Virus record (IMG/VR): IMGVR_UViG_3300016644_000071
Span: 1 to 40,026 of that record
Source: a virus
Length of the DNA stretch: 40,026 nucleotides
Strand: one strand, 5' to 3'
Below, in pieces: positions 30,741 to 32,306 of the stretch (positions are counted from its first letter, which is position 1; each line of letters opens with the position of its first letter). Under the pieces are notes generated by a model. That model had not been told where the DNA came from and did not search any database. It saw nothing but the letters and a program-made list of their open reading frames with translations. Both the position numbers and the translations under genes were made by a program.

Positions 30741-30772
30741 AGGCAAGTAGATAATTCACGAACTACTTGCCT
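30741..30772 (-). terminator. strong hairpin (10-bp perfect stem AGGCAAGTAG/CTACTTGCCT, 12-nt loop) closing the HD/RHH cassette
   Basis: Arms at 30741-30750 and 30763-30772. On the minus strand it is followed by TGTTTATATAT, a weak U-tract. May be a terminator, attenuator or processing site. Confidence 0.35.
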
Positions 30773-30853
30773 CTGTATTTTACTTGTTACGATTTGTAAT
30801 AATCTAATAGCAAACCGAATTTATAGTTTAAAATTGATTTACGAACGCTGCAA

Positions 30854-30994
30854 TTAATCTCTAAAATGTTTCCTTAAAATATAAAACACCTGTGCTTTTC
30901 TTGTCCGCAAATCTTTTGCTGCTTCTTGATCTATTTTCTCAAGTAGCTCTGGGTCTAATTCAACGTGGACAATAACTTTTTGTTCTTTGGTCAT
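30854..30994 (-). CDS. ribbon-helix-helix (CopG/Arc-like) DNA-binding protein, 46 aa (below the ORF-track cutoff)
   Basis: My translation is MTKEQKVIVHVELDPELLEKIDQEAAKDLRTRKAQVFYILRKHFRD: a beta-strand followed by two helices, typical of RHH. The ATG directly abuts the stop of the upstream ORF. Confidence 0.6.
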   Translation of the reverse strand: MTKEQKVIVHVELDPELLEKIDQEAAKDLRTRKAQVFYILRKHFRD

Positions 30995-31186
30995 TTAATC
31001 CTCATCTGTTAATTTTTCCAACATTTCCACATGTTGTTTTGTATGTACGGAAAATGTATAATCAGTACCTTTTAAATTACTTTCTAGTTCTTTAAATTTA
31101 TTTAATCTTTCTTTTAAACGTTCTTTAGTATAACCAACACTTTCGAATATATCCAAAAACGCTGCTTTAAGATGTGGGTTTGTCAT
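30995..31186 (-). CDS. hypothetical protein (63 aa)
   Basis: ORF abutting the HD gene upstream and the RHH gene downstream with no spacer. Confidence 0.55.
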   Translation of the reverse strand: MTNPHLKAAFLDIFESVGYTKERLKERLNKFKELESNLKGTDYTFSVHTKQHVEMLEKLTDED

Positions 31187-31711
31187 TTAGCCCTCCTTTT
31201 TATTGTCTATCATATTATAAGCTATTTTTAATAGTCTATTATCTGTTTTATCTAAAGCTTGTAATAATAGTGCTTTTTCTTTTAAATAAATTTTAGCAAA
31301 CCTTGGATCATGTATAGCTATTGATGATGTATTACTAATCATGTCGCAAATTTTTATATTTTGCACTTCCTCACAGGTTTTTGCTAACCTCTCACGTGAT
31401 AATCGTTTTCTTTCAGCTCTGTTTCCAGTTTCCAAATCAGATAAAGCAACTACATAATCTTTTACAACAAAACCAAATTCATTTTCTAACTCTTCTTCTG
31501 TTGTATCAGTATCTTCTAATGTATCATGTAGCCACGCAGCTGCTATTACTGATGGGTCGCTATGCACAGTTGATACCAAAGCTGCAACTTCTGCTAAATG
31601 TTTCCAATATGGCTCATTTGTGTATTTTCTACGTTGGTTTTTATGTTTATCCATTGCAAAACACATAGCCTTATAACATAAGGCATCTTTTATTGCTTCA
31701 ATAATGTTCAT
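31187..31711 (-). CDS. HD-domain protein, RelA/SpoT-hydrolase-like (small alarmone hydrolase-like), 174 aa
   Basis: YWKHLAEVA, AAWLHDTLEDT (HD) and a distal KICDMISN helix parallel the layout of the 4925-5608 protein and of Mesh1/SAH-type hydrolases. Confidence 0.7.
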   Translation of the reverse strand: MNIIEAIKDALCYKAMCFAMDKHKNQRRKYTNEPYWKHLAEVAALVSTVHSDPSVIAAAWLHDTLEDTDTTEEELENEFGFVVKDYVVALSDLETGNRAERKRLSRERLAKTCEEVQNIKICDMISNTSSIAIHDPRFAKIYLKEKALLLQALDKTDNRLLKIAYNMIDNKKEG

Positions 31712-31881
31712 TTTGTTTTTTCCTTTGTTTCTTTATTTTCTATAGATATGCCATATAGTTCACCATAGATTTTACCAAAATCAACTTGTGATAAGTTTTT
31801 TAACCTATAATTTTCCCATTTACTAAACCTACGGGCTTCTTTAGTTGAAAATTTGATTTCTGCTTCTTCAGGAATGTTCAT
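31708..31881 (-). CDS. hypothetical protein, 57 aa (below the ORF-track cutoff)
   Basis: My translation is MNIPEEAEIKFSTKEARRFSKWENYRLKNLSQVDFGKIYGELYGISIENKETKEKTK. Its stop overlaps the HD gene start (ATGA). Confidence 0.45.
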   Translation of the reverse strand: MNIPEEAEIKFSTKEARRFSKWENYRLKNLSQVDFGKIYGELYGISIENKETKEKTK

Positions 31882-31929
31882 ATTTTTTTCTCTCCTGATA
31901 ATATTTTTTTACTAATAACCTGAGATAAT

Positions 31930-32154
31930 TTATTTATCATTATATCCCTCCAATAGTTTTTTATATCTGTTTAACACATTTTCAATATTTTCAATTTCGT
32001 TCAGAACATACTTTACATTATTACTATTTTCTAAACTTTCTAAATCATGTTGAAAACATGTCATACTATTTAAAATAAATCCATGATACGTATTAAACTC
32101 ATATTGTAAGCTTGAAAGAATTTTAAGTAACTCTTCATTGGTATTTATTTTCAT
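31930..32154 (-). CDS. hypothetical helical protein (74 aa), first gene of the cassette
   Basis: ORF downstream of the operator-bearing promoter region. Confidence 0.55.
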   Translation of the reverse strand: MKINTNEELLKILSSLQYEFNTYHGFILNSMTCFQHDLESLENSNNVKYVLNEIENIENVLNRYKKLLEGYNDK

Positions 32155-32253
32155 TTTCCTTTCTCTTTAATAAATGTAATAATAATCTGTTTTAATATAA
32201 CTTCCGCTAAATACTATTCCATAATCTTAACCCTCCATTTGTTGTAATTACAT

Positions 32254-32306
32254 ATTATAATACTTTTAAAGTAATGTCTAGTTACTTTTTAAGTAATTAT
32301 AAAGTA
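32254..32306 (-). promoter_or_regulatory. candidate leftward promoter (TAGACA, 15-nt spacer, TATAAT) overlapped by palindromic operators of form TACTT-N3-AAGTA
   Basis: The -10 is at 32259-32254 and the -35 at 32280-32275. O1 (TACTTTTAAAGTA, 32261-32273) fills the spacer. O2 (TTACTTTTTAAGTAA, 32282-32296) abuts the -35. A degenerate third site lies at 32294-32306. Confidence 0.45.

Follow-up and report, generated by a model that had tools for sequence, protein, structure and literature searches.

The stretch of viral DNA considered here, IMG/VR virus record IMGVR_UViG_3300016644_000071 (positions 1 to 40,026; hereafter the window, 40,026 nucleotides), raises a question at positions 30,741–32,306: what is a leftward cassette of five small genes, which sits behind a palindrome-bearing promoter and ends in a gene for a probable ribbon-helix-helix (RHH) protein, doing between a DUF5681 gene and the terminase gene TerL? 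A sequence-only reading had described the cassette as a discrete, self-regulated five-gene module and had left its role between anti-defence, host takeover and addiction. Our answer has parts of unequal strength. The cassette is, with high confidence, a mosaic accessory operon absent from the related phage MAnkyphage_25.80, and its five-gene "system" is one permutation of a shuffling accessory array under a conserved promoter. With modest confidence we read it further as an RHH-autorepressed, moron-like accessory operon of a MAnkyphage-type Megaira phage, probably serving anti-defence and analogous to the operon of the RHH regulator Aca14.

Positions 1–22 recur at 40005–40026, so the window is a complete genome, closed into a circle of about 40,004 bp. 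Its TerL (28581–30044, minus strand) is 91.6% identical to the terminase of MAnkyphage_25.80 (OP381185.1), a Megaira polyxenophila phage with a 38.4-kb circular podovirus-like genome, and blastn aligns window positions 7015–29999, which cover the structural genes, to that genome at 85–90% identity. This similarity is interrupted from about 30000 to 33148. The order of genes in MAnkyphage_25.80 is DUF5681, 96 bp, a 190-aa serine recombinase and TerL, whereas the window has DUF5681 (32542–33015), a terminator, a promoter, five open reading frames (ORFs), a hairpin, a 120-aa helix-turn-helix (HTH) protein and TerL. The cassette is missing from MAnkyphage_25.80 between the same flanking genes, blastn finds nothing similar to the cassette region there, and the exact operator palindrome is not found in that genome either. 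Because this relative lacks the cassette between the same neighbours, we regard the cassette as a moron-like insertion. Its base composition is no different from that of the neighbouring DNA; megablast of the cassette region against GenBank phages matched nothing, and an Rfam scan of 30000–33300 returned nothing credible. The elements of the locus, read from the upstream end, are as follows.

32462–32496, minus strand: predicted intrinsic terminator for the DUF5681 transcription unit that precedes the cassette; opens the portable frame
32294–32306: third operator-like copy, imperfect (one mismatch), 11 bp from O2
32282–32296: O2, perfect palindrome TTACTT-AAA-AAGTAA abutting the −35; candidate operator
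32261–32273: O1, perfect palindrome TACTT-TAA-AAGTA in the promoter spacer; candidate operator
32252–32280, minus strand: predicted core promoter, TAGACA (32275–32280), N17, TAATAT (32252–32257); scan match 9/12
32254–32259, minus strand: alternative −10, TATAAT, present
32214–32236, minus strand: vestigial ribosome-binding site GGAGGG (32231–32236) and vestigial start ATG-GAA-TAG (32214–32222) of a 99-aa gene
31936–32216, minus strand: 281-bp replacement segment with the 74-aa gene and its own leader, from blastn breakpoints at 32217 and 31935 and from gene maps
31930–32154, minus strand: 74-aa gene
31882–31935, minus strand: the region of the "48-nt spacer", a vestigial 3' end of the relatives' 50-aa gene (blastn)
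31708–31881, minus strand: 57-aa gene
31187–31711, minus strand: HD gene, 174 aa
30995–31186, minus strand: 63-aa gene
30854–30994, minus strand: 46-aa probable RHH gene
30740–30773, minus strand: closing hairpin, a probable, possibly leaky terminator (folding)
30704–30746, minus strand: downstream promoter-like element, TTGCCT (30741–30746), N15, TATAAT (30720–30725), with a repeat
30704–30719, minus strand: that inverted repeat, TTACTA-TGCC-TAGTAA, after the TATAAT and overlapping the ATG of the 120-aa gene

All five ORFs lie where the sequence-only reading had placed them, and the upstream terminator (as a prediction), the two perfect palindromes and the closing hairpin that it had described were recovered as well. 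Its statement that the genes are joined by zero-spacer or ATGA junctions holds for three of the four: the 57-aa and HD genes overlap by ATGA, and the HD-to-63 and 63-to-46 junctions are both TAAATG with zero spacer, whereas 48 nucleotides separate the 74-aa and 57-aa genes.

Is this, then, a defined five-gene module? We compared it with relatives' loci, numbered L002–L051, many of which are metagenomic contigs and some of which lack the upstream region. An HD protein identical to that of the window is encoded on 17 contigs, in at least five arrangements, and when loci are collected through the HD, 63-aa, 57-aa and RHH proteins, MAnky-like phages have at least nine arrangements, listed here by gene (numbers are protein lengths in amino acids).

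Arrangement 1: 74-57-HD-63-RHH (window, L005, L006, L009)
Arrangement 2: 99-50-HD-63-66 (transmembrane)-RHH
Arrangement 3: 99-50-57-HD-63-RHH
Arrangement 4: 50-57-HD-63-75-RHH
Arrangement 5: x-HD-63-RHH
Arrangement 6: 99-50-Tad2-like (57)-Tad2-like (80)-91-63-RHH, no HD gene
Arrangement 7: 99-95-50-57-Tad2-like-75-63 and onward
Arrangement 8: 50-57-119-Tad2-like-120-RHH
Arrangement 9: 65-88-43-81-Tad2-like-RHH

Outside the window, all five genes are found together in L005, L006 and L009 alone, whose genomes are nearly identical to it; at least eight further combinations of genes stand behind the same promoter in close relatives, and some of these have no HD gene. What is constant is the terminator-promoter-operator frame, the gene for the 46-aa probable RHH protein and usually the 63-aa gene. 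Among contigs long enough to include the upstream region, the promoter block is the same whether or not the arrangement includes the HD gene, and the RHH gene is last in every MAnky-like arrangement in which it is on the contig, with neighbours that vary (the 63-aa gene, a 66-aa transmembrane gene, a 75-aa gene, a 48-aa gene and others). The sequence-only reading is supported in that there appears to be a discrete, separately promoted, hairpin-bounded unit ending in a probable RHH gene, and not supported in that this unit would have a defined five-gene composition.

The DNA itself carries scars of exchange. The vestigial ribosome-binding site and start codon at 32214–32236 align with the ATGGAA column at which the 99-aa gene begins in L003, L004 and L007, and the 281-bp segment that follows in the window takes the place of that gene and of most of the 50-aa gene seen in relatives. 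The remnant at 31882–31935 matches the 3' end of the 50-aa gene at 98% identity in L018 and at 92% in L007. The HD gene has its first 16 nucleotides, ATGAACATTATTGAAG, in common with the 57-aa gene of L007 and L008, and most Tad2-like array genes start likewise; this shared start would account for the variants that lack the 57-aa gene. At their other end, Tad2-like genes finish with ...DDWEVVE, whose codons (GATTGGGAGGTGGTGGA) hold the GGAGG ribosome-binding site of the next gene. Since these gene-end sequences are shared and look like recombination joints, we propose that the cargo is exchanged by recombination. Nearly all Tad2-like genes start MNIIEA and end DDWEVVE (L013, L015–L018, L023–L025, L029, L036–L040, L044, L049); the HD gene also starts MNIIEA (window 31696–31711), and the 57-aa gene starts MNIPEE or MNIIEE.

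How is such an array expressed? The upstream terminator is predicted as a 13-bp stem with a 9-nt loop (−15 kcal/mol; z = −5.2) followed by a U run, and the hairpin is identical in L005–L007, L050 and L051. The core promoter aligns column by column with the TTGACA-N17-TAATAT promoters of related arrays and is invariant in the relatives' alignment. Because promoter-like hexamer matches are no commoner in this AT-rich stretch than in shuffles (25 vs 23.4), support for the predicted promoter comes from its conservation and not from its match to consensus. The sequence-only reading had built its promoter on TATAAT; that hexamer is present. By the scan and by homology to relatives' promoters, TAGACA-N17-TAATAT is the better hexamer pair, and with it too one palindrome lies in the spacer and another abuts the −35. 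Exact TACTT-N3-AAGTA occurs at only two sites in the 40 kb (32261–32273 and 32283–32295), where 0.12 are expected, and two sites were reached in one of 100 shuffles. The centres of O1 and O2 are 22 bp apart, and O1 is conserved in L003–L007, L018–L021 and L051. The third, imperfect copy overlaps a second TATAAT (32296–32301), which pairs with TTATCA (32318–32323). Across arrangements the promoter-operator block is invariant and the sequence upstream of it varies; folding of the 5' untranslated region found no structure beyond that of shuffles.

The closing hairpin has an 11-bp stem, a 12-nt loop and about −15.5 kcal/mol (z = −3.2), with a moderately U-rich tail. It is present in the window, L005 and L009, and L033 and L051 each have a different hairpin in its place. 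Its stem contains AAGTA and TACTT, and we considered it as an operator; we set this aside, the arms being in the opposite order and the hairpin being conserved in the nearest relatives only. The −35-like TTGCCT of the next promoter sits in the 3' arm of this hairpin, and the inverted repeat at 30704–30719, just past the TATAAT, may be a second target of the RHH protein. The ATG of the 120-aa gene comes 6 nucleotides after that TATAAT with no ribosome-binding site, and its mRNA is possibly leaderless.

The obvious candidate for the protein that reads these palindromes is the product of the last gene. We consider the 46-aa protein to be probably an RHH DNA-binding protein and propose it as the autorepressor. 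It matches PHROG 4738, "transcriptional repressor", at 9e-5, and its pattern of alternating hydrophobic residues (7, 9, 11 and 13), with two helices and an RTRK turn after them, fits an RHH protein. A long-form homologue can be aligned gaplessly along the whole RHH domain of Aca14 (bioRxiv 10.64898/2026.07.27.740549), at 33% identity over 46 aa and a pairwise E of 5e-5; hhalign of the window RHH family against Aca14 gave E = 0.0045 with a probability of only 7.7%. A profile search of the family against PDB sequences returned no RHH protein, only a chance CorA match, and hhalign against CopG was not significant. The family core is 46–50 aa, and the 46-aa protein has no extension beyond the DNA-binding domain. 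Its gene is the only one in the cassette under clear purifying selection (dN/dS 0.2–0.5 among relatives); the 57-aa gene has too few substitutions for this estimate and the 74-aa gene has none.

Comparison across phages links this protein to the palindromes. Homologues fall into two classes by their predicted DNA-contacting strand, and each class goes with its own sites.

IVH-type, strand K-(V/I)-I-V-H-V-E (I/V8, H10): TACTT-N3-AAGTA-type sites, in six of the six arrangement types that have the upstream region
SVN-type, strand K-(I/T)-S-V-N-I-E (S8, N10): ATTAT-N3-ATAAT at the aligned O2 position, in L036, L037 and L040

The pairing of the IVH type with TACTT-N3-AAGTA spans two phage backbones, for L050 has a different backbone (porin-HU-GapR type) from the MAnky-like phages, with the same terminator, promoter and degenerate operators. 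L036 and L037 are siblings of the L050 backbone with a homologous promoter that lacks TACTT/AAGTA sites; L036 has ATTAT-N3-ATAAT three times, against 0.09 expected. RHH class and palindrome class thus appear to switch together, even within one backbone (L050 vs L036/L037), which favours the binding of the palindromes by the RHH protein that the sequence-only reading had suggested. Because residues 8 and 10, where the classes differ, alternate with hydrophobic residues and align with the two threonines of the Aca14 T-x-T-x-R strand, we predict that they contact bases, as strand residues would from what is known of RHH structures. We take the covariation as suggestive and not as proof, because the clades are few.

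Two further lineages have repeats near an RHH gene. In L022–L024, four direct AAGTAA repeats (3925–3979) cluster in a gap of 66 nt just before a divergent RHH gene, whose strand residues are TFINID; AAGTAA is the half-site that forms the right arm of the window operator. L026–L028, a further lineage carrying an SVN-type RHH, have a perfect 14-bp palindrome, TACTAATATTAGTA, at 4535–4634, between an RHH-containing gene pair and a ParA-like ATPase gene.

What does the operon deliver? The best-defined cargo is the HD protein, for which the sequence-only reading of an alarmone-hydrolase-like enzyme is borne out: it matches Pfam HD_4 at E = 8.5e-16 (58.5 bits, cut-off 27.2), phrog_990 at 4e-38 and, over the hydrolase part, NCBIfam spoT_relA at 3.2e-20. 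It is 174 aa long, a single domain without a synthetase, and the only other Pfam family at E ≤ 1 is a related HD family. Its best PDB matches are the Mesh1 structures 3nqw, 3nr1 and 5vxa, and alignment to 3nqw and 3nr1 shows that the HD, ED, ERKR and KxxDxxxN motifs are kept (KHLAEVA, WLHDTLEDTD, ERKRLS, KICDMISN). By these matches it is a single-domain RelA/SpoT-type hydrolase, predicted to act as a Mesh1-like small alarmone hydrolase (SAH). Homologues occur in 148 GenBank phage records, all less than 60% identical, with about 47% the best among the matches listed; in GTDB representative genomes only matches of 32–35% identity were found, in Firmicutes metagenome-assembled genomes. Stand-alone phage SAHs neutralise every toxSAS toxin tested and have been proposed as counter-defence proteins (PMC7229694). 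The window protein resembles these SAHs (PbcSpo of PVP-SE1 and PaSpo of SSU5) and Mesh1 in its single HD_4 domain, length of about 175 aa and catalytic motifs, and shares with PbcSpo and PaSpo that it is phage-encoded; it differs from each GenBank phage homologue by its identity below 60%. Among 11 copies of the HD gene (L003–L012), no two differ by 3 or more nucleotides, and the adjacent 63-aa genes differ at 4–12 of 189 nucleotides. This pattern suggests that the HD cassette may have spread recently, with the ascertainment bias that the loci were retrieved by exact identity of the HD protein.

The other cargo genes are less eloquent. The 74-aa protein is nearly an orphan, with four matches at E ≤ 0.001 among 1.84 billion representative proteins, one partial match in an IMG/VR scan and no match in Pfam, PADLOC or NCBIfam. 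The 57-aa and 63-aa proteins have only close homologues, in metagenomes, and the 57-aa gene is present or absent among relatives. The 63-aa protein, with 44 homologues at ≥73% identity, is encoded by the most constant cargo gene, usually directly upstream of the RHH gene; the gene also lies between Tad2-like genes in another phage type, where no RHH gene is adjacent. Its AlphaFold2 (AF2) model is a three-helix bundle (pLDDT 85.7) with no structural match at E ≤ 0.001 in Foldseek searches of PDB and BFVD, and tblastn of the RHH and 63-aa proteins against GenBank phages found none, even at E = 1. We also asked whether the window 57-aa protein is the Tad2-like 57-aa protein of L018 and rejected this, as the two are different families sharing only an MNI.E start. 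On our reading the 74-, 57- and 63-aa proteins are independent cargo and not subunits of one machine.

The company kept by the RHH gene may point to counter-defence. RHH homologues of several phage lineages lie in long same-strand arrays of small genes, repeatedly with Tad2-like genes: 17 of 25 array members from the Tad2-like cluster match Pfam Tad2-like at E ≤ 0.001, and some relatives have Tad2-like genes instead of the HD gene at the same slot. Tad2 (DUF2829) is described as a sponge that counters Thoeris defence (bioRxiv 10.1101/2023.05.01.538930). Between one and five Tad2-like paralogues are present in sister arrays built on the same frame, and the HD and 57-aa genes share the Tad2-like MNIIE start; the window differs in having no Tad2-like protein, and membership of the family does not imply sponge activity for the array genes. 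Of the roles left open by the sequence-only reading, anti-defence is the one that the evidence favours, through the Tad2-like genes in sister arrays, the SAH precedent and an acr-aca architecture. We nevertheless hold the anti-defence role of the cassette itself only as plausible, short of probable; that the cargo serves counter-defence or host modulation of some kind is most likely.

The architecture has precedents, and the statement that no described system has this composition holds for the gene list and not for the layout, which recalls acr-aca operons, including that of Aca14, and phage morons. Aca14 is an experimentally characterised regulator of the RHH type; its binding sites are AT-rich inverted repeats that overlap the −10, and it represses its own operon plus a neighbouring anti-defence operon (bioRxiv 10.64898/2026.07.27.740549). 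The window operon shares with acr-aca/Aca14 loci a promoter of its own, AT-rich inverted repeats that overlap the core of that promoter, a changing set of small cargo genes, a 3'-terminal gene for a small, probably DNA-binding protein and a similar repeat at the neighbouring promoter, all as judged from its DNA. It differs in that its cargo includes no known anti-CRISPR gene, in its RHH protein, which belongs to a separate family and, unlike Aca14, has no N-terminal helix (its long-form homologues do have an extension at that end), and in its operator, TACTT-N3-AAGTA as against TGTATATG..CATATACA. Phage morons, as described by Hendrix and colleagues, are extra transcription units between conserved genes. 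The cassette fits in being absent from MAnkyphage_25.80 between the same neighbours and in its own predicted promoter-like and terminator-like elements; it differs in being a multi-gene shuffled array with a dedicated regulator and not a single gene.

Together these observations suggest the following model. The frame would consist of a terminator, a promoter that bears two or three 5-3-5 palindromes and, at the 3' end or close to it, a small RHH gene; it would hold a cargo of small genes that are swapped by recombination at short shared gene ends. On infection the promoter would fire and the cargo would be expressed, with the HD protein acting as a small alarmone hydrolase, a type of enzyme that can neutralise toxic alarmone synthetases. 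RHH dimers would build up and occupy O1, within the spacer, and O2, next to the −35, which lie two helical turns apart on one face of the DNA; this binding would shut the operon down and might extend to the related repeat at the next promoter. Autorepression by the RHH protein through O1 and O2 is in our view a reasonably probable part of this model.

Several points weigh against it. The promoter, the terminators and RHH binding are predictions from sequence. The covariation of RHH and operator comes from two or three clades that are not independent, and AT-rich palindromes arise easily. The 46-aa protein matches Pfam RHH_1 only at E = 0.068 (13.6 bits, under the cut-off of 20.5); RHH_1 is matched by 21 of its 31 homologues, the best at 0.0032 and all sub-threshold. 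An AF2 monomer model from a shallow alignment is one helix (residues 15–45, pLDDT 71) with no strand-helix-helix; RHH proteins are obligate dimers. The "textbook" RHH fold of the sequence-only reading was therefore overstated, and what stands, on the PHROG 4738 match and the Aca14 alignment, is a probable one. The array does not always end with the RHH gene in more distant phages, and read-through into the terminase genes is possible because the U tail of the closing hairpin is weak. PADLOC gave no match of any cassette protein to a known defence or anti-defence model; none matches Tad2-like (PF11195) in Pfam, and hhalign against the Tad2-like profile of the arrays gave a probability of at most 1.9%. 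Finally, an alarmone hydrolase could be equally suited to general host takeover.

Might the frame be more than the property of one phage group? We can imagine, as a speculation that we think unlikely though worth stating, that the terminator-promoter-operator-RHH frame is a portable counter-defence expression platform, its cargo reshuffled at Tad2-like gene ends (5' ATGAACATTATTGAAG, 3' ...GATTGGGAGGTGGTGGA), which moves between unrelated phage backbones of intracellular alphaproteobacterial symbionts as an integrase-free, integron-like device. If so, the three orphans of 63, 57 and 74 aa would count as novel anti-defence proteins, and the RHH family would represent a new Aca-like regulator that recognises at least two kinds of operator. 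The autorepressed accessory operon that we favour would itself matter in related ways. To our knowledge, almost nothing is known of phage-host conflict in phages of obligate intracellular symbionts; if our model is correct, the promoter-operator plus RHH frame offers a guilt-by-association handle on counter-defence genes in such phages (those of Megaira and relatives), and the RHH family would be a second, sequence-distinct lineage among the recently described RHH-type Aca regulators, with a natural specificity pair (I/V8-H10 with TACTT/AAGTA, and S8-N10 with ATTAT/ATAAT). The cargo is mostly uncharacterised and the host group unusual. The "five-gene system" should be treated with caution as a snapshot of a shuffling array and not as a functional complex.

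Among competing explanations, host takeover survives best, though we think it rather improbable as the whole answer. The HD enzyme would lower (p)ppGpp and set a growth state that favours phage replication, with no tie to defence; its place in the RelA/SpoT hydrolase family, its intact catalytic motifs and its homologues, which are widespread in lytic phages and annotated as ppGpp hydrolases, all agree with this. The replacement of HD by Tad2-like genes in the same slot argues instead for interchangeable counter-defence cargo and not for a metabolic function that the phage needs. The HD enzyme could serve both roles.

A developmental control region is, in our estimation, improbable, though it may hold in part. 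On this explanation the RHH protein would be a timing or immunity regulator of the adjacent packaging or late promoter, and the small genes ordinary early or middle genes, much as in the immI region of P22, where Arc and Mnt are RHH repressors and Arc, the first gene of its operon, controls the antirepressor. The window resembles that region: it too is a podovirus, with a gene for a small probable RHH repressor, a candidate operator between the −35 and −10 of its own promoter and a place near late genes, exactly at the boundary before the small HTH gene and TerL. In L003, L004 and L018–L021, moreover, the next promoter is TTGCCT-N17-TATAAT, and a perfect TACTT-GCT-AAGTA directly abuts its TATAAT, ahead of a 449-aa gene and TerL; the window has its related repeat after the TATAAT at 30704–30725. 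The RHH gene of the window, in contrast to Arc, is last, its cargo is enzymes plus small orphans, and no sequence similarity was detected between P22 Arc/Mnt and the cassette. MAnkyphage_25.80, which lacks the cassette, the exact operator palindrome and any blastn similarity to the cassette region, indicates that the phage cycle can proceed without the unit; the TerL promoter of L008, L010 and L043 has no operator, and in the L050 backbone the same frame occurs where the terminase genes are not next.

Less probable still is that some other regulator, of host or phage, binds the palindromes, or that they are mere promoter architecture, with the 46-aa protein acting elsewhere or not binding DNA. 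The sub-threshold RHH_1 matches and the single-helix model leave room for this, the RHH fold not being formally established; against it, RHH and palindrome classes switch together in one backbone (L050 vs L036 and L037), and the classes differ at strand residues predicted to face the DNA.

The addiction module suggested by the sequence-only reading, with the RHH protein as antitoxin and another cassette gene as toxin, is very improbable, for although RHH proteins are common antitoxins that autoregulate through palindromes and the cassette shares with type II toxin-antitoxin operons an RHH gene, palindromic promoter operators and likely autorepression, the 46-aa protein is essentially a DNA-binding domain with no room for a toxin-binding tail, its gene is last and not first, it has no fixed partner in a unit of variable content (HD, 57-aa and 74-aa genes come and go, extra genes intervene between the 63-aa and RHH genes, and the 63-aa gene is found without an adjacent RHH gene), no cassette protein matches a toxin family in Pfam, PADLOC or NCBIfam, and a genuine PemI (RHH, 75 aa)-PemK pair in sister arrays has the antitoxin-first, fixed-pair layout. 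That pair heads sister arrays of a different backbone (L013 757–1294; L015 4147–4684; L017; L046) and is followed by Tad2-like genes and the 63-aa gene.

Other variable features lie around the cassette. The slot just 5' of TerL holds the 120-aa HTH_7-like protein in the window (30352–30714, minus strand), the full 190-aa serine recombinase in MAnkyphage_25.80 and a 449-aa protein without a Pfam match in other relatives (slot coordinates L002 9828–10400 and L003 4676–6025); it is empty in L008, L010 and L043, where TerL comes directly. A second variable locus, window 4752–7015, has no DNA similarity to MAnkyphage_25.80: the window has a 227-aa ORF on the plus strand and a 427-aa ORF on the minus strand, and MAnkyphage_25.80 carries at the matching place DUF4065 and a RelE/ParE-RHH toxin-antitoxin pair. 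Between TerL and a 1495-aa tail-fibre-like gene lies a gene for a 347-aa patatin-like phospholipase (27535–28578, minus strand), kept in MAnkyphage_25.80 and in metagenomic relatives. Within the 1495-aa ORF, positions 24539–25921 (minus strand) give many offset blastn matches to MAnkyphage at about 85–89% identity, which indicates that the tail-fibre-like gene contains an internal tandem array with units of a few hundred bp. A gene for a 101-aa ankyrin-repeat protein (33371–33676, minus strand; Ank_2 1.4e-13) lies two genes upstream of DUF5681, in the window and in relatives; it is a kind of gene that is unusual in phages and typical of the MAnkyphage group.

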